Shown piece after piece: positions 20,941 through 28,019 of a DNA stretch of 64,000 bases. The notes under the pieces are model-generated. The model was not told the origin of the DNA and searched no databases. It was given only the letters and a program-made list of their open reading frames with translations. Position 1 is the stretch's first letter, and the number at the start of each line of letters is the position of its first letter. The translations under genes and the position numbers were made by a program. Source of the stretch: Candidatus Babelota bacterium (GTDB lineage: Bacteria > Babelota > Babeliae > Babelales > Vermiphilaceae); NCBI GenBank assembly GCA_049325595.1, contig JBMOLF010000010.1, positions 128,001-192,000 of the forward strand, given 5' to 3'.

Positions 20941-21678
20941 TTATACTTTAATATTTCTTAAGGCTCGTTTGCAAATTTTGGAGGTATTTTCAGTATGAGA
21001 ACTTAAAATCCATTGTGTGCATAATGATTTTACCCATTCAGGATGGTCTTTTCCTGCATCATTTAGCCAATTGCCGACTGATAATTGAACATATCGACTG
21101 GGATCATCTTTTAATTTTTCTAAAAGTGACAATGCTTGCCAGGGTTCTTTTTTCAATTCTTTAATATGGCTACACCAAACACCACGTGGCCGTGTGATTT
21201 CACAAGCAAATCTTCTAATGTTCTCTTTAGAGTTGTGTGCCCAGGGCAATAAATTTTTGATGCCTTGATGCGGATTTTTAATTATTTCTTCTCTTAAGCA
21301 AAGCCATGCCCATTCACGAACACCAAAATGACTATCATTGGCAAGATCATAAATTAAAGTAAGTTTTTCATTAAATGGCTGTGAGGTTTGTGCGATTAAA
21401 AAGCAAGCTATACCCCGGACTGTATCTGAATTATGAGTTTTAAGAAAATCAAACAAAGTAAATTGATTTTTTTGATATATCAATTGAGCGGTAAGAAGCA
21501 TTTTTTTAGTGATACCAAGGGAATTATTGATAGTAAATTCTTTAAATTCTGGCAAAACAGAAGGAATAAGAATATTAAAATCAATGGACAAAGCTTCCAT
21601 CAAATTTTTAGTTTCTAGCTTTCCGGTATTAAGCAAAAATTTTTTTTCTTGGTTAGACACGATGTTTTGCCTTAGCAT
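20941..21678 (-). CDS. HEAT-repeat DNA alkylation repair protein (AlkC/AlkD-like)
   Basis: DSHFGVREWAW, RRFACEITRPRGVW, DPSRYVQLSVGNWLND. Confidence 0.85.
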   Translation of the reverse strand: MLRQNIVSNQEKKFLLNTGKLETKNLMEALSIDFNILIPSVLPEFKEFTINNSLGITKKMLLTAQLIYQKNQFTLFDFLKTHNSDTVRGIACFLIAQTSQPFNEKLTLIYDLANDSHFGVREWAWLCLREEIIKNPHQGIKNLLPWAHNSKENIRRFACEITRPRGVWCSHIKELKKEPWQALSLLEKLKDDPSRYVQLSVGNWLNDAGKDHPEWVKSLCTQWILSSHTENTSKICKRALRNIKV

Positions 21679-21854
21679 GGCCTGCCAGTCGTAGCCGATT
21701 TATACATATTAGCCCGTGCTATGCTTATCCAGGCCTATTGGCTTGGCACGTGTGCGGCATAGCCTTTGGCGACGACGTAAGCTATGCAGGGCATGCTTCA
21801 TTGTTAAAATGATTTTATGGCTGTGCCATGTGTAGTTCGTAGAACGAAACATGG
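21670..21854 (-). repeat. tRNA 3'-trailer composite palindromic element, copy 1 (after tRNA-Ser TGA)
   Basis: GC-rich hairpin modules; 21670-21696 matches 25593-25619 at 25/27; 21819-21846 matches 25480-25507 at 23/28. Confidence 0.8.
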
Positions 21855-21943
21855 AGGAGAGGGAGGGATTCGAACCCTCGATTCCCATCTCTGGGAATAA
21901 CGGTTTTCAAGACCGCCGCATTCAACCGCTCTGCCACCTCTCC
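21852..21943 (-). tRNA. tRNA-Ser(TGA)
   Basis: GGAGAGG acceptor stem, GCGGT-CTTGAAA-ACCGT anticodon arm, long variable arm, GTTCGAATCC, CCA. Confidence 0.95.
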
Positions 21944-22001
21944 AATTGAGATGCCTTATTATAATATAAGTAAATTCATAGTTTTTCAAATTTTTTTCAC
22001 T

Positions 22002-22577
22002 TTAATAGACTATTTTATCTTTTTTATCCTGCCATAAGGTGAAAAGTTCTTTGGCTTTAGGTTGGCATGTTGTTACGTGAGTAGTTTTAATAAGACGTTG
22101 TTCTTCAGGGGTTTGTAACTCTTGATAAATTAATGAATCATCAAAACCAACCTGAGCAGCATCAAGTTTGGTAGCCGCATAATAAATATGTCGTGGACGA
22201 GCCCAATAAATAGCGCCAAAGCACATAGGGCATGGCTCACAACTAGTATATAATTCACAATCTAAAAGCTGAAAAGTTCCCAATTTTTGACAAGCAAGCC
22301 TAATTGCCATTACTTCTGCATGAGCAGTAGGATCGTTAAGGCTGGTAACTTGATTAGTTCCAACCGCAATAATTTTACCATTATTAACAATGACTGCGCC
22401 AAAAGGACCACCTTTACCTTCGAGCATGCTGTTCTTTGCTGCATCAATAGCAATATTAAGAAAATAAGAAGATTGATCAAAAGGTAGCACTATTTTTTTG
22501 GGTGTTTTTTTTCTTTTAAAAAAATAATAACCAATGAATAAGCTTACTATAACTACCAAATAAATAAGACCAATCAT
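22002..22577 (-). CDS. Zn-dependent nucleoside/guanine deaminase (GuaD/TadA-like) with N-terminal TM
   Basis: GGPFGA, DPTAHAE, EPCPMC, GFDD. Confidence 0.9.
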   Translation of the reverse strand: MIGLIYLVVIVSLFIGYYFFKRKKTPKKIVLPFDQSSYFLNIAIDAAKNSMLEGKGGPFGAVIVNNGKIIAVGTNQVTSLNDPTAHAEVMAIRLACQKLGTFQLLDCELYTSCEPCPMCFGAIYWARPRHIYYAATKLDAAQVGFDDSLIYQELQTPEEQRLIKTTHVTTCQPKAKELFTLWQDKKDKIVY

Positions 22578-22586
22578 TAATTTTCC

Positions 22587-24422
22587 TTACATATTTTGAT
22601 ATGAATCGAATGAAAAATTATTAATCAAATCACAAGCATAGCATGATCCATTACTATTGCTAATGGTATTGCACATTGAGCAAAGTAAATGTCCGCAGTG
22701 TGTATAGAGTGTATTTGGTATTTCTTTTAATTGATAAGCACAACTAGGACATTTACCATGATTAGATTTCCAAATGCAATGAGCAATATATTCGATTAAT
22801 TCTTTATTTTGTGGATCAATAAGATCCAAGGGTGTTTTACCACTATCAGAGCACCATGTCATATCACTGAAAGTAAAGTTTTTAGTTGATAATAGCCATT
22901 GAACCATTTTTGTATTATTTTCGCGGGCTGCTAGATGTAAACCATTTTCGTTATACTGAGTTAGTTTTTTAATCATGCCTCCTGATTTATATAGAAATTC
23001 ACTAATTGCTATGTTGCCACATGCAATAGCCCACAGCAATGGTGTTAATCCATTAACATATTCATTCTCAAGAAGATCCATATTTTCTTGTAGCAATTGT
23101 TCAAGAAATGTTTGATTGTCAAAATAAATTGATCGATGCACTAAGAAGCTTTTATCTATCTTTAGATTGTTATTATTGCAAAGATATTCTGCAATATCAT
23201 TTTTTTGGTTTTTTAAGGCAATATTTAAAATATTATCATGTTCATCTTGGGCTGACAAAACAACAAAACGATGCTTCTCTATTAAGTTCTTTACAACTTC
23301 CCGGCTGCTTTTTTCGCATGCAAATTTAAGATATTCATGCATTTGAATTTCATCTATTTTAAATTTTTCAAGCAAAGCATTAATAGTTTCACATGATTGA
23401 GCTAAAATCGCTTCGTGTAAAGGGGTATGGCCGTTTTTCGCTTGATAGTTATCAAGAGTTATTTTCTTTTTCTCTTTTAAAAATTCTTTTATAAATTCAG
23501 CCTTGCCATTTAAGGCAGCATAGTGAAGTGCGCTTTTATCTTCTTTATCAGTCTCATTGGATCTGTGTTTTATATGACGAAGAATTTTATAAATATCAAA
23601 ATGTCCTTCACGAGCAGCATAGAGTGCTGGTAGTACAGCAAATATATTTCGTTCTGTTTTTAATTGTGGGCGTACTTCTAAAATTTTTGTTACCATCGCC
23701 ATATTACCTGCTTGAGCAGCAAAATGTAGCACATTTTCTTTGTCTCTACTGGTACTTGTTATTTTTATTCTGTCCATCAGATAACTAAATACATCAATAG
23801 AAACTGTTGGTTTTGCCATAGCAGAATGCAATAATGCATTATTGCCGTGGTCATCCGTTTCTAAAGGATCGTAATGAAACTCTTCAATCATGACTGTAAC
23901 CATTTTAAGACAGCCAGCCTTGCATGCCCAATGTAAAGGGGTTTCACCACGATAATTACACAAAAGATGTTTTCCTTTGAAACTATGTAATATTTTAAAA
24001 GCCTCTATTGAATTATTCTTAGCTGCATAATGATGAGGATAATTACCATGGTCATTTGCTTCAAGAGGGTTCATTTCATATTTGTGTATAAGTTCTTCTA
24101 GTATTGATGACTGATTACCTAATGCGGCTAAGTGAAGCAGAGTTGTTTTTTTTGGGGTTGGGAAATTATATGAGATAGTTAAATCAAACAATTCTTTATG
24201 TCCATAAACAGTCGCATGTTGTAGAGCTTCATTCATCTTTTTAGTAAAATCTGGATCACTTGGAAATTGACTTTTTATAGTGCTTAAGATTAGATCAGCT
24301 GGCTTTTTTAAAAATACCATCTCTTTTATATCACAAGCAGTGCTTTGATTTGTTATTGGTGCGTCGTTGGTGTGGCTTAATAAATGAAATAGAAAAATAA
24401 GTACTACAAAATAAATAGTCAT
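22587..24422 (-). CDS. Secreted ankyrin-repeat protein with C-terminal C3HC4 RING finger
   Basis: Many TPLHxA-type repeats; C-terminal CPSC...CGH..CSMC...CYAC; signal peptide. Confidence 0.9.
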   Translation of the reverse strand: MTIYFVVLIFLFHLLSHTNDAPITNQSTACDIKEMVFLKKPADLILSTIKSQFPSDPDFTKKMNEALQHATVYGHKELFDLTISYNFPTPKKTTLLHLAALGNQSSILEELIHKYEMNPLEANDHGNYPHHYAAKNNSIEAFKILHSFKGKHLLCNYRGETPLHWACKAGCLKMVTVMIEEFHYDPLETDDHGNNALLHSAMAKPTVSIDVFSYLMDRIKITSTSRDKENVLHFAAQAGNMAMVTKILEVRPQLKTERNIFAVLPALYAAREGHFDIYKILRHIKHRSNETDKEDKSALHYAALNGKAEFIKEFLKEKKKITLDNYQAKNGHTPLHEAILAQSCETINALLEKFKIDEIQMHEYLKFACEKSSREVVKNLIEKHRFVVLSAQDEHDNILNIALKNQKNDIAEYLCNNNNLKIDKSFLVHRSIYFDNQTFLEQLLQENMDLLENEYVNGLTPLLWAIACGNIAISEFLYKSGGMIKKLTQYNENGLHLAARENNTKMVQWLLSTKNFTFSDMTWCSDSGKTPLDLIDPQNKELIEYIAHCIWKSNHGKCPSCAYQLKEIPNTLYTHCGHLLCSMCNTISNSNGSCYACDLINNFSFDSYQNM

Positions 24423-24477
24423 AGAGCTCCCCCTTACAAAGAAGCTTAGACTATAAGGGGGAAAGATTTAAATTATT

Positions 24478-25053
24478 TTATTGCGCATCAGATTCTTGAG
24501 CTAAACGGAAATAGTGTTCAGCGCGCTCTAAATTGTTTTCAGCTTTATAAAGAGCACTTAAATTGATAAATGCTTCATACAACCGATGTTCGTCGGCAGC
24601 GCGATGAAAATATTTTTTTGCCAATTCAAAGTTTTTTTCTTGCTCATATACACAAGCCAACACAAATTGTGCTTGCGGAAAATTGTTAGTATCAGCAGCG
24701 CAATGTAAATAATGTTTTGTTTTTGTAGCATCAGATTGGGAGTCATAAAACAATCCAAGATTTAATTGGGCATGAGCAAGATTATGCTTGTCAGCTGCTA
24801 TGTGTAAATAGTGAAGAGCTTTTTCTGTATTATTTTCGTGGGCATATAAAAAGCCAAGATTATTGTGAGCGCCTGGATGATCATGTTCATCGGCAGCTTG
24901 ATGATAATATTTTTTTGCTAATTCGTTATTGTTTTCATCTTCGTATAATAATGCCAAATTAAATTGAGATTGTGCATCATTAAGTTGATCGGCGCCAAAA
25001 TGAAGAGCTTTTTTATCTTTAGGTTGATGATCTGAGCAATGATTAGTACACAC
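24478..25053 (-). CDS. Sel1-like repeat protein
   Basis: Repeats of AQxNLGxxY...AxxYxHxAAD; AAGGA SD before GTG. Confidence 0.85.
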   Translation of the reverse strand: MCTNHCSDHQPKDKKALHFGADQLNDAQSQFNLALLYEDENNNELAKKYYHQAADEHDHPGAHNNLGFLYAHENNTEKALHYLHIAADKHNLAHAQLNLGLFYDSQSDATKTKHYLHCAADTNNFPQAQFVLACVYEQEKNFELAKKYFHRAADEHRLYEAFINLSALYKAENNLERAEHYFRLAQESDAQ

Positions 25054-25189
25054 GAAAAATCCTTAAGTGAGTTGATGAGTGAAAAATTAATTAATAATTT
25101 ACAAGATTTTTGTATCTATCTAAAGTAGGTAATTTTGATTGTAGAGAAATTTTTGCAATTTTTTATTCAAGATAAATAACGTACTAGTA

Positions 25190-25361
25190 AAAGAACATGG
25201 CTTGTCAGCTGTAGCGGGCAATGTTTATAGTGTTTAGTCCAGCCTGCGTGTCTCACTTTGTTCGCTTACTTCGGCGGACAGCTTTCGCCACTTTTTTTAT
25301 AATAATTTATTATTCATTTGAAAGAATATGGCTTGCCAGCTGTAGCTTTAGCGAAAGCTGG
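25190..25361 (-). repeat. tRNA 3'-trailer composite palindromic element, copy 2 (after tRNA-Arg)
   Basis: CCAGCTTTCGCTAAAGCTACAGCTGG hairpin beginning at the CCA; 25190-25215 matches 25321-25346 at 24/26. Confidence 0.8.
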
Positions 25362-25435
25362 TGCGCCTAAAAGGAGTCGAACCTTTAACCTTCAGATCCG
25401 TAGTCTGACGCTCTATCCAGTTGAGCTATAGGCGC
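25359..25435 (-). tRNA. tRNA-Arg(ACG)
   Basis: GCGCCTA acceptor, TCAGA-CTACGGA-TCTGA anticodon arm, GGTTCGACTCC, CCA. Confidence 0.95.
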
Positions 25436-25479
25436 ATATATTTCAATAATATATACAACTTTAAGTTGTATCACAATTT

Positions 25480-25637
25480 GGTTGTGCCATGCAAAGTTCA
25501 TAGAACGGTCCGTCTACGCTTATCCGGGTCATCAGACTCGGCAAGCTTCATCGGACAGCCTTCGCAATTATATATCAAAGATATTTTTAATACCTTAACA
25601 TGGCCTGCCAGTCGGAGCCTTTATTGGCGAAGACTGG
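25480..25637 (-). repeat. tRNA 3'-trailer composite palindromic element, copy 3 (after tRNA-Ser GCT)
   Basis: CCAGTCTTCGCC...GGCTCCGACTGG hairpin from the CCA; second GTCCG...CGGAC hairpin; modules shared with copies 1 and 2. Confidence 0.8.
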
Positions 25638-25725
25638 TGGAGAGAGGGGGATTCGAACCCCCGCGCCCCATTTCTGGAGCTCTTGCTTAGCAGGCAAGCG
25701 CTTTAAGCCACTCAGCCACCTCTCC
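25635..25725 (-). tRNA. tRNA-Ser(GCT)
   Basis: CTTGC-CTGCTAA-GCAAG anticodon arm, long variable arm, GTTCGAATCC, CCA. Confidence 0.95.
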
Positions 25726-25918
25726 GATACAAGACATCAAAGAGAATAAAGCATTTGCCATTTTATGCAAGTAGTTTGACATTTTTTCTATAAGTTTATC
25801 CCTTTTTTTTGTTTTGTATATATCAATTTTTTTATTTTTATAGGTATCTTATAGCATTTAATGGAGCTGGCCTGTTATAATTAAATGCGTATTTATTCAA
25901 CAAAAAAGGATAATCTAT

Positions 25919-26215
25919 ATGCCATTGCTTATTGAAGTTAAAGCAGTACCTCAATCAGGAAGACATGAGTGGTCTTTAGACAAAGCTGGACGTATTAAAG
26001 TGCATTTAAAAAATCCTGCTGAAGACCATAAGGCTAATAGTGAAATTATTAAATCTTTGGCAGAAATAGTTGGTATTCCTCAAAGTAAAGTGGAAATAGT
26101 CGCAGGATTGGCAAGTCGTAATAAAAAAATAAAAATTGGCGCAGAGATTACCTTAGAGCAGTTGTTGCAAAAATTAGGCATCGAGCAACAACAAAATATT
26201 TTTAAAAAAGGCTAA
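25919..26215 (+). CDS. DUF167/YggU family protein
   Basis: VKAVP, KANSEII, IVAGLASRNK. Confidence 0.85.
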   Translation: MPLLIEVKAVPQSGRHEWSLDKAGRIKVHLKNPAEDHKANSEIIKSLAEIVGIPQSKVEIVAGLASRNKKIKIGAEITLEQLLQKLGIEQQQNIFKKG

Positions 26216-26218
26216 TAT

Positions 26219-27400
26219 ATGCCCTTTTATAAATGGCATGGGGTTGATTTATTAGCAACTTCTTGTTCGGGTAAATTGTATGCGTCATCAATTGAGGAAT
26301 TAAACAATAAACTACGACAAAAAAATATAGCATTATTACGCGCTCGTCCGATAAAAATAATATATTACCGAAAACCACGATTGGCTGATAAAATGGCAGT
26401 GGCAACTCATTTGTCTTATCTTATTAAGGCAGGCATATCAATACCACAGGCACTTGAGTTGGTTGGGAATCAGTTTGCTAACAAAGCATTAGCATGTATG
26501 CTTTATGAAGCTTCTCAAAAAGTGACACAAGGACAGTCTTTAAGTAATGCGATGTGTTCGTATACTATTTTTGATCCGTTGCTTGTACGTTTAGTTGAAA
26601 TAAGCAACCATACTGGCAATGTAGAACGAGCATTTGATCAAGCAATAAATTATTTGTCTGAGCGACAAGTTCTTTATAGAACGTTGTGGTCTGCCGCTTC
26701 TATGCCCCTTATTACTTTTTTTTTATTTATGGGGATTTCAATTTTTGCCTTGCTGGTGCTGATTCCCCAGTTTGCCCATTTATACCAATCAATGAATATT
26801 CAATTGCCTGAATCTACTCAAAAGTTGTTGATGATAAATCAGTTGGCAAACGATAAAGATCTTTATGTACTTGGTGGTATGGCTATAGCTTGTTGTGCCA
26901 GTATTTGCCTATGCATGAAAAGGTTTTTTAAAAAAATAGTTATGGCGATATTTTGGCATTTTCCTGTTTGCTCTCGAGTAATGCGTTCGTATGTATATGC
27001 ATTGTTTTTTGATTCGGTAGGTTACCAATTACAATCTGGTATTCCACTTGCTGATGCGCTTAAATCCAGCATAGTAATAGTTAATGATCTTCCGGTGATT
27101 ACTTTATTTAGAGGGATTATTCAAGAAGTAGAATCAGGCATGTCTCTTGGAAATTCGATGGCTCGTGCAAACTTATGGCAGCAGGATACTATAGCGATGA
27201 TTAATATAGGTTATGAATCAGGTACACTTGCCACTATGATAACTGCTATAGGAATGCGTTATCGCCAATATTTTCAAAAGCAACTAGAAAAAATAACTTT
27301 CTTTTTCCAGCCATTTTTACTCTTAGTATTAGGCCTTATGATTGGTTATTTTGTCTATGCTCTTTATATGCCTATCTTTTCCGTTGGCAATAGCTTTTGA
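26219..27400 (+). CDS. Type II secretion F / type IV pilus platform protein (PilC-like)
   Basis: Two GspF-like repeats (LIKAGISI, LQSGIPL), GYESGTL, ALYMPIF C-terminus. Confidence 0.85.
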   Translation: MPFYKWHGVDLLATSCSGKLYASSIEELNNKLRQKNIALLRARPIKIIYYRKPRLADKMAVATHLSYLIKAGISIPQALELVGNQFANKALACMLYEASQKVTQGQSLSNAMCSYTIFDPLLVRLVEISNHTGNVERAFDQAINYLSERQVLYRTLWSAASMPLITFFLFMGISIFALLVLIPQFAHLYQSMNIQLPESTQKLLMINQLANDKDLYVLGGMAIACCASICLCMKRFFKKIVMAIFWHFPVCSRVMRSYVYALFFDSVGYQLQSGIPLADALKSSIVIVNDLPVITLFRGIIQEVESGMSLGNSMARANLWQQDTIAMINIGYESGTLATMITAIGMRYRQYFQKQLEKITFFFQPFLLLVLGLMIGYFVYALYMPIFSVGNSF

Positions 27401-27483: not shown

Positions 27484-27571
27484 GCCGGAATGGCGGAATT
27501 GGTAGACGCACGGGACTCAAAATCCCGCGGTGTTTGACACTGTGTCGGTTCGAGTCCGACTTCCGGCACCA
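27484..27571 (+). tRNA. tRNA-Leu(CAA)
   Basis: GCCGGAA acceptor, CGGGA-CTCAAAA-TCCCG anticodon arm, variable arm, GTTCGAGTCC, CCA. Confidence 0.95.
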
Positions 27572-27932: not shown

Positions 27933-28019
27933 GTCGAGATGGCCAAACTGGCAGACGCACCAGCTTCAAGTGCTGGCGGTGGCAACAACATGCCGGTTCA
28001 AATCGGGCTCTCGACACCA
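27933..28019 (+). tRNA. Atypical or degenerate tRNA-Leu(CAA), possibly a pseudogene
   Basis: GTCGAGA/TCTCGAC acceptor, CCAGC-TTCAAGT-GCTGG arm, encoded CCA; G-G mismatch in the T stem. Confidence 0.75.

Follow-up and report, generated by a model that had tools for sequence, protein, structure and literature searches.

What are the short GC-rich blocks that begin, without any gap, at the CCA of three tRNA genes in a genome of a Candidatus Babelota bacterium (G000; assembly of 1.29 Mb in 24 contigs)? The window in which they lie is a stretch of 64,000 nucleotides (nt) of contig C10 (G000:C10:128001-192000), and an earlier note on it had proposed that they are tRNA-targeted non-autonomous mobile elements. 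We think it probable that they are non-autonomous, gene-less copies of a selfish cassette that sits directly behind the CCA of tRNA and transfer-messenger RNA (tmRNA) genes. The full form of this cassette consists of a hairpin (A), a short palindrome with a linker, a segment that complements the first arm of hairpin A together with a second hairpin (B), and a gene for a GIY-YIG nuclease of 80 amino acids (aa) in the direction of the tRNA. A small GIY-YIG open reading frame (ORF) directly downstream is present for the copy behind the tmRNA gene of the same genome and absent for the three window copies, and because of this absence we file the latter as non-autonomous derivatives.

ARAGORN finds 12 tRNA genes in the window, and the three with an element are all on the minus strand. 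The note had put the elements at about 160-185 bp; by ARAGORN and the sequence they measure 166-185 bp, each beginning at the CCA of tRNA-Ser(TGA), tRNA-Arg(ACG) or tRNA-Ser(GCT), with a GC content of 0.43-0.49 against 0.345 for the contig. On the tRNA strand the left arm of hairpin A (S1) is the tRNA's own CCA, a variable triplet xyz and TTCG, followed by a small inner stem-loop, CTAC (or TCC) and, as the right arm, S2 (x'y'z'TGG). Behind S2 stands the tail C(A/G)NGCCAT, which forms a small palindrome with it (S3), and beyond the tail come an AT-rich spacer, the segment S4 (GCGAA-x'y'z'-TG) that complements S1 again, hairpin B and a partial A unit. The stems vary among the three copies with their complementarity kept (CCATGT/ACATGG, CCAGCT/AGCTGG, CCAGTC/GACTGG). 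The parts are as follows.

21852..21943, minus strand: tRNA-Ser(TGA) (ARAGORN, Rfam tRNA), whose CCA at 21852-21854 is the first three bases of element 1
21670..21854, minus strand: element 1 as a whole, 185 bp, GC 0.49
21826..21854, minus strand: hairpin A of element 1, with S1 CCATGT-TTCG, inner stem-loop, CTAC and S2 ACATGG
21817..21829, minus strand: small palindrome ATGGC-ACA-GCCAT (S2/S3) of element 1, which competes with hairpin A
21801-21816, minus strand: AT spacer of element 1
21792..21800, minus strand: S4 of element 1, the complement of S1 beyond the AT spacer; the minimum-energy fold pairs S1:S4
21712..21792, minus strand: composite hairpin B of element 1, with nested GTAG-flanked inner hairpins and a 25-nt core at 21723-21747
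21670..21696, minus strand: in element 1, a stretch better taken as what is left of an older A unit of GTC type (…CTAC-GACTGG-CAGGCCATG…)
25359..25435, minus strand: tRNA-Arg(ACG) (ARAGORN, Rfam tRNA), with its CCA at 25359-25361
25196..25361, minus strand: element 2 as a whole, 166 bp
25336-25361, minus strand: hairpin A of element 2
25328-25335, minus strand: tail of element 2
25289-25327, minus strand: AT spacer of element 2
25279-25288, minus strand: S4 of element 2
25237-25279, minus strand: hairpin B of element 2
25196-25215, minus strand: 20-nt repeat of the 3' half of A in element 2
25635..25725, minus strand: tRNA-Ser(GCT) (ARAGORN, Rfam tRNA), with its CCA at 25635-25637
25453..25637, minus strand: element 3 as a whole, 185 bp
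25608-25637, minus strand: hairpin A of element 3
25599-25607, minus strand: tail of element 3
25566-25598, minus strand: AT spacer of element 3
25556-25565, minus strand: S4 of element 3
25508-25556, minus strand: hairpin B of element 3, core-like at 25518-25542
25479-25505, minus strand: in element 3, a stretch better taken as what is left of an older A unit of TGC type
25453-25471, minus strand: AT-rich hairpin of element 3

The partial A unit at the right end had been called a half copy of A. Such a unit is indeed there, but in elements 1 and 3 its stem type is unlike that of the left hairpin, and since this holds for two of the three elements the unit is better read as the remnant of an older resident one. 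The other nine tRNA genes of the window have no element, by a covariance-model scan and by inspection of their trailers, which are ordinary and AT-rich, and neither a nuclease nor a transposase gene lies in the window, both as the note had said.

Is the shared layout more than chance? We counted pairing in 83 copies with 15 different xyz triplets, with foreign triplets as the control. In 57 of the 83 copies CCAxyz has its exact complement downstream (4.2% in the control), in 53 an exact S4 follows farther downstream (1.8%), and in 31 a second CCAxyz with at most one mismatch stands behind S2 (6.9%). On an alignment (A2) of 21 short spacers, taken only from other phyla and with none from G000, RNAalifold predicts both hairpins; the paired fraction is 96% for S1:S2, 90% for S1:S4 and 89-95% for hairpin B, with many double changes, and the covariation score was reached by none of 500 shuffles, while slid controls gave about 40% pairing. 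For S2:S3 only 50% of the cells are paired on A2, which is partly an alignment problem, and its support is the weaker count of 31 of 83. Because S1:S2 and S1:S4 cannot coexist, the covarying helices are mutually exclusive and two alternative folds are conserved.

A covariance model (R1) built from A2 alone matches nine of the ten copies that we find in G000 over their full length, with E values of 5.4e-12 to 4.1e-5 and every match starting at the CCA, and has no comparable match elsewhere in that genome. In the window it finds element 3 at 25488-25637 (E 5.4e-12), element 2 at 25217-25361 (E 6.9e-9) and element 1 at 21742-21854 (E 4.1e-5). Since a model made from other phyla matches all three in full length, the window elements are beyond chance, and the common layout described by the earlier note stands. 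Their folding z-scores against shuffles are -3.66, -1.46 and -2.05.

Where are the other copies, and what gene goes with them? According to BLAST and ARAGORN the ten copies in G000 occupy 10 of its 39 tRNA and tmRNA genes (38 tRNAs and one tmRNA by ARAGORN), and all begin at the CCA. Beyond the window they stand behind the tmRNA, tRNA-Ser(cga), tRNA-Ser(gga), tRNA-Arg(cct), tRNA-Arg(tcg), tRNA-Ala(ggc) and tRNA-Gln(ttg), the last being a minimal copy with hairpin A joined to the right-end hairpin. Nine are gene-less. The tmRNA copy on contig C7 alone carries a GIY-YIG gene, the only small GIY-YIG match in G000, an ORF of 80 aa located 200 nt behind the tmRNA and directly after the element there (Pfam PF01541, E 1.4e-14). 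The earlier note had mentioned a link between such repeats and small GIY-YIG genes, and this copy, together with the ties of the nuclease to tRNA and tmRNA ends across phyla, supports that link. A hairpin ATCC..GCAGGA..GAGCCA follows the nuclease ORF and also closes the gene-less copies of tRNA-Arg(cct), tRNA-Arg(tcg), tRNA-Ala(ggc) and tRNA-Gln.

Judged by its sequence, the 80-aa protein is an Slx1/UPF0213-type GIY-YIG nuclease that consists of the catalytic domain alone, with no separate DNA-binding domain. The nearest solved proteins are UPF0213 BH0048 and SLX1 (profile E 1.6e-10 to 1ZG2 and 1.7e-9 to SLX1). Residues Y5, Y17, G19, R27, H31, N32 and E63 are invariant in 14 nuclease sequences, and Y5, Y17, R27, H31 and E63 among them are of the catalytic type. 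No NCBIfam model matches the nuclease, and a tblastn search gave no match to it in plasmid and phage collections. Six of the ten occupied genes in G000 end in CTCCNCCA, against 1 of the 29 unoccupied ones (Fisher p 4e-4), and 25 of 57 cross-phylum copies come after ctcca+CCA; the bias of the acceptor end towards CTCCNCCA hints at some sequence or homology requirement.

Are the same tRNA genes occupied in a close relative? In the same-genus genome G001, which is complete in one contig and syntenic with G000 here, the sites behind the three window tRNAs are all empty. The gap from tRNA-Ser(gct) to tRNA-Arg(acg) measures only 9 nt in G001, against about 196 nt in G000, where a similar 9-mer is retained just before tRNA-Arg; from the CCA of tRNA-Arg(acg) there are 33 nt to the next ORF and no element, and the sequence behind tRNA-Ser(tga) is unrelated. 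G001 has a single module (the two hairpins that precede the gene) with GIY-YIG, at tRNA-Ala(ggc) and of stem type ACC. The G000 copy at tRNA-Ala(ggc) is gene-less and TGC-type, and between the two loci only the 76-nt tRNA aligns, so that the same tRNA is occupied by different element lineages in the two congeners.

Several units can also be stacked behind one gene. An older GTC-type module behind the G001 nuclease gene begins with GTCTTCGCC, the bases that normally come next after the CCA; at tRNA-Ser(gga) of G000 an older GTC-type unit, starting at the base after the CCA, stands behind a newer unit; and behind a tRNA-Leu of G031 there are two units of 132 nt and a partial third in tandem, of which the second and third are without CCA. 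Older units that lack only the CCA thus stand behind newer ones. This is the pattern that repeated entry exactly 3' of the CCA would leave, and such entry would explain the partial A units at the right ends.

There is variation between strains as well. Among contigs from four metagenome runs, compared over 21000-26400, a nearly identical strain, taken from a different study (X2; 5467-nt contig at depth 26, 10-11 differing letters over about 4.3 kb) has elements 1 and 2 intact and misses 122 nt of element 3 (25506..25627, minus strand). On the tRNA strand the joint runs from CCAGTCTTCG to TTCTATGAAC, right after the TTCG of S1. A contig of a further run (X3), which joins tRNA-Arg to tRNA-Ser through 12 other letters, was not used, as it has only 28 fitting letters on one side and is probably from another organism. 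Gains, losses, stacking and gene-less derivatives are all seen, and the empty congener sites, the strain polymorphism and the nine gene-less copies beside one with a GIY-YIG gene support the proposal of tRNA-targeted non-autonomous mobile elements.

How widespread is the system in the order? In a sample of 40 relatives model R1 matches 28, with up to 38 matches per genome, some of which are both strands of one palindromic copy; a scan of the genome and its relatives with a covariance model, as the note had suggested, thus gave further copies in both. GIY-YIG is found in 26 of the 40, with 1-5 matches each, several with stop codons, and cross-tabulation gives 23 relatives with module and nuclease, five with the module only, three with the nuclease only and nine with neither. 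A tRNA or tmRNA gene on the same strand ends 73-435 nt upstream at 18 of 28 sampled nuclease loci of the relatives (L075 was left out of this count), with nine identities. The 37-nt inner hairpin is multi-copy in 16 of the 40, and 12 of 26 sampled loci that match the core have it no farther than about 130 nt from a tRNA or tmRNA 3' end, the other 14 having no tRNA in the locus. In G018, 14 of the 18 non-redundant R1 matches begin at the base after the tRNA discriminator.

Two further observations may be added. In the tmRNA genes of L202 (G018:C1:182200-182900) and L129 the 'CCA' of S1 is made of the last two C's of the acceptor stem and the discriminator A, and the templated CCA itself is missing. 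On contig C1 of G039 a palindromic repeat of about 95 nt is dispersed away from tRNAs in about 21 copies (twelve places, L189-L200); it has the same design of A and B hairpins, begins with TCCGAC and has conserved flanks (…GTCATCCTGAGG… and …AGGATCCAG).

Does the association hold outside the order? A scan of one genome per species, using an alignment (A1) of 14 nucleases, gave at least 557 confirmed nuclease loci, and the following counts are from the best 80 of these. They come from Verrucomicrobiota, Alphaproteobacteria (cultured Bradyrhizobium included), Ignavibacteria, Patescibacteria, Omnitrophota, Acidobacteriota, Lentisphaerae and others. According to ARAGORN a tRNA or tmRNA gene on the same strand ends 90-435 nt upstream in 61 of the 80 loci (tRNA-Ala 16, tmRNA 12, and eleven other identities). 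Eight of the 19 loci without such a call have less than 500 nt of upstream sequence, and in at least four more (L079, L080, L083, L151) inspection by eye shows a T-arm and an acceptor end ahead of the CCA. A manual count finds the module before the gene in 72 of the 80 loci, five of which also have one right behind it, and the layout of the spacer is alike in all phyla: a CCA-xyz-TTCGC hairpin, a linker, GCGAA-x'y'z'-TG, a second hairpin and the GIY-YIG ORF. The G000 protein is 63-65% identical to copies in Verrucomicrobiota and 59% to the copy in its congener. The family is thus present in many phyla and tied to tRNA and tmRNA 3' ends.

How could such a cassette spread? New copies would enter exactly 3' of the CCA and shift older copies downstream, which would leave the partial A units, and the nuclease would be supplied in trans by the tmRNA-linked copy. 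SLX1 cuts branched DNA, and by analogy the cassette nuclease may be guided by structure, cutting either a hairpin junction of the element or the tRNA gene itself, after which repair would copy the element in. The cassette may be transcribed by read-through from the tRNA promoter, and the two-hairpin module could double as a leader that limits expression of the nuclease, with hairpin B masking the ribosome site.

Several points weigh against the elements being copies of a mobile cassette. We saw neither a transposition event nor a target-site duplication nor a defined right end, and the mechanism of mobility is one that we infer. The 122-nt variant of X2 has mismatching left and right arms, and for this reason a deletion that runs from one stacked unit into another accounts for it better than an ancestral empty site would. 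Five module-bearing relatives, among them G008 (97% complete) and G034 (99% complete), have no nuclease that we could find, and in G039 as many as 21 of the 30 non-redundant R1 matches are away from tRNA ends, with 9 at them; the counts among relatives are moreover non-independent. Six Bradyrhizobium records and one of Tardiphaga have the cassette at tRNA-Ala(ggc), and this repeated placement fits stable vertical inheritance as well as mobility. Finally, G-T wobbles outnumber A-C mismatches by 15 to 5, and in compact copies hairpin B has a Shine-Dalgarno-like GGAGG in its 3' arm, 6-11 nt ahead of the ATG; the excess of wobbles, the masked GGAGG and the two exclusive covarying helices together point to selection at the RNA level.

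Could the module then be foremost an RNA device? The earlier note had named regulation of tRNA 3' processing as its other reading, and such a role may exist. As an RNA device the module would serve as trailer of the tRNA and as leader, would switch between S1:S2 and S1:S4 with S2:S3 and would control tRNA 3' maturation, termination or translation of the nuclease, and gene-less copies would be kept for the host or the tRNA transcript. The signs of RNA-level selection speak for this, as do the counts of exact complements and of S4, the covariation of both exclusive helices, and the minimum-energy folds of the window copies, which use S1:S2 in one and S1:S4 in two. Element 3 is probably part of a tRNA co-transcript, to judge from the flanking tRNAs, which are only 9 nt apart in G001. 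On the other side, the empty congener sites mean that these tRNAs can do without the module, sub-hairpins are found both along and against the direction of the tRNA, among 24 sequencing runs there is no RNA run that contains the stretch, G039 has its dispersed copies away from tRNAs, and the T-run after S3 is absent in GC-rich phyla. The terminator-like and promoter-like sites in 21500-26000 (5 against 2.7 expected and 23 against 18.7 expected) do not rise above chance and are uninformative. A primary role as an RNA device thus seems rather unlikely to us, and it is in any case compatible with mobility, so that both can be true together.

Some side observations concern elements 1 and 3 and a pair of tRNA calls elsewhere in the window. 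The ATG (21676-21678, minus strand) of a 245-aa ORF at 20941-21678 sits inside the right-end remnant of element 1, and the first 25 or so residues of this ORF are unlike the G001 orthologue, with similarity beginning near LMEALSID; element 1 may be the source of a new start or leader for this ORF. The right part of element 3 holds a perfect AT-rich hairpin of 8 bp, ATACAACT-TAA-AGTTGTAT (25453-25471, minus strand), and a promoter-like TTGTGA-17-TATATT just upstream of tRNA-Arg(acg). Strain X2 has small deletions of 1, 11 and 5 nt around this hairpin and promoter-like site. On the plus strand there are two calls of tRNA-Leu(caa), 27484-27571 and 27933-28019, 360 nt apart; the second scores 33.3 bits against the Rfam tRNA model and may be a decayed duplicate.

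Which known system is closest to a selfish cassette of this kind? The free-standing GIY-YIG homing endonucleases, for instance the seg genes of phage T4, resemble it in being small selfish GIY-YIG genes beside tRNA genes, and one paper places SegB in the tRNA gene cluster (PMC13096335). Their presence or absence likewise differs between close relatives, and both are presumed to spread through a break and copying by repair. Seg proteins have a C-terminal DNA-binding part, whereas the cassette protein is a bare catalytic domain of 80 aa. The cassette differs also in its junction fixed at the CCA, its conserved two-hairpin module before the gene, its many gene-less copies, and its hosts, which are bacterial chromosomes of many phyla, with no match in the phage and plasmid collections. 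As for the protein, it belongs by its sequence to the same family as the Slx1/UPF0213 proteins (PDB 1ZG2 and 1YWL; SLX1 7CQ2 and 4XLG). Passages of the 2006 survey of GIY-YIG proteins describe the stand-alone YhbQ-type members as minimal and possibly ancestral, and hold nothing on a position behind tRNA genes or on a conserved hairpin module (PMC1564403).

The likeness to REP, BIME and REPIN sequences with their RAYT (TnpA-REP) enzymes is evident: the elements are GC-rich imperfect palindromes in mosaic clusters, with many gene-less copies beside one or few nuclease genes, and the GTAG/CTAC tetranucleotide at the hairpin foot is present, as CTAC stands on both sides of the 25-nt core and also in hairpin A. 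The earlier note had considered membership of this type, and that palindromes are mobilised by a RAYT or an IS200/IS605 Y1 (HUH) transposase is a natural thought, all the more as G000 has two intact Y1_Tnp genes and three fragments. It is nevertheless very improbable here. The 563-bp unit common to both Y1 copies, and its flanks, have no similarity to the elements; Y1_Tnp is found in only 7 of the 40 relatives and is absent from 22 of the 28 that bear the module, including complete genomes with 15-18 module matches; and the gene that the module precedes is the GIY-YIG gene instead. The partner enzyme is thus GIY-YIG and not an HUH Y1 transposase, and, as a further difference from REPs, most copies are fixed to tRNA or tmRNA CCA ends in a single orientation. 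Mobilisation by RAYT or IS200 is for these reasons largely refuted. A PATE derived from IS200/IS605 was rejected too, as the elements have only chance-level similarity to the Y1 loci L001-L004. The two intact genes, IS200-like and of 155 aa, are at C15:98579-98941 and C19:7018-7380, in units that are 98% identical, and three decayed copies are on C9 and C17; neither the intact nor the decayed genes are related to the tRNA-end elements.

The least credible idea is that the elements are att-site scars of tyrosine or serine integrase elements: tRNA and tmRNA 3' ends are classic integration sites, with tmRNA, tRNA-Ser and tRNA-Arg often used, and G000 has three tyrosine recombinase genes and three large serine recombinase genes that end at other tRNA 3' ends, but none of the ten copies adjoins a recombinase gene or is flanked by a duplicated tRNA 3' segment, they are only 0.1-0.5 kb long, no islands bounded by the module and a copy of a tRNA 3' end were seen, and the conserved module is linked to GIY-YIG across phyla. 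Tabulated adjacency, another check that the note had named, hence ties the module to GIY-YIG and not to Y1 or tyrosine recombinase genes. Membership among integron attC sites, also considered in the note, falls away, as RYYYAAC and GTTRRRY are both absent from the three elements on either strand. The three serine-recombinase-like genes are paralogous large ORFs (open frames of 351-486 aa) on the opposite strand that end at or within 3 nt of the tRNA 3' ends, at tRNA-Glu(ttc) on C7 (8363-8437) and at tRNA-Arg(tct) (99639-99715) and tRNA-Asp(gtc) (282430-282507) on C10. The C-terminal halves of their translations, inspected by eye, have a Cys-rich motif typical of large serine recombinases, and they look like a second class of tRNA-end elements in G000.

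Has the cassette been described under another name? Rickettsia palindromic elements and other small structured bacterial repeats are short GC-rich palindromes that spread in AT-rich intracellular genomes, without specificity for tRNA ends and without a linked GIY-YIG gene. The elements are likewise short GC-rich palindromic repeats in an AT-rich genome, but the sequences are unrelated, and nothing in Rfam makes the elements a known family: with Rfam 15 only rRNA and tRNA reach the gathering score in the window, and seven full cassettes searched at E <= 1 give nothing over the module. A full-text search of the literature, supplements aside, turned up no paper that describes a tRNA-end GIY-YIG cassette or the module, and passages of a paper on horizontal gene transfer do not describe them either (PMC12455944). 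The cassette is thus apparently undescribed, a variant of the selfish nuclease cassettes and not a REP, PATE or attC element.

One step further lies the idea of a new class of mobile element. Its nuclease, no more than a bare GIY-YIG domain of Slx1 type, would recognise the target from the shape of the nucleic acid and not from the sequence, and the element would insert itself exactly after the CCA. The shape would be the cloverleaf or cruciform extruded by the tRNA gene together with the switching hairpin junction of the element on the CCA. This is a speculative proposal, conceivable although we would not bet on it. In a related version the nuclease might trim the co-transcript as well and by doing so keep the host tRNA working, a self-cleaning comparable to that of a self-splicing intron.

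For annotation it matters that the module overlaps tRNA ends, can give neighbouring ORFs start codons and replaces the encoded CCA in some tmRNA genes. If the elements are what we think they are, a very common family of small 'hypothetical' nucleases (UPF0213/YhbQ-like) would gain a biological context, as the enzyme of a selfish cassette that colonises tRNA and tmRNA 3' ends in many phyla, cultured Bradyrhizobium included, and REP-like hairpin repeats would have a new partner enzyme. It would also account for hitherto unexplained GC-rich blocks that follow tRNA genes in reduced, AT-rich genomes, and would offer a compact, structure-defined system, of about 100 nt of DNA and a protein of 80 aa, in which to study how targeting can be precise to the single nucleotide without a DNA-binding domain.

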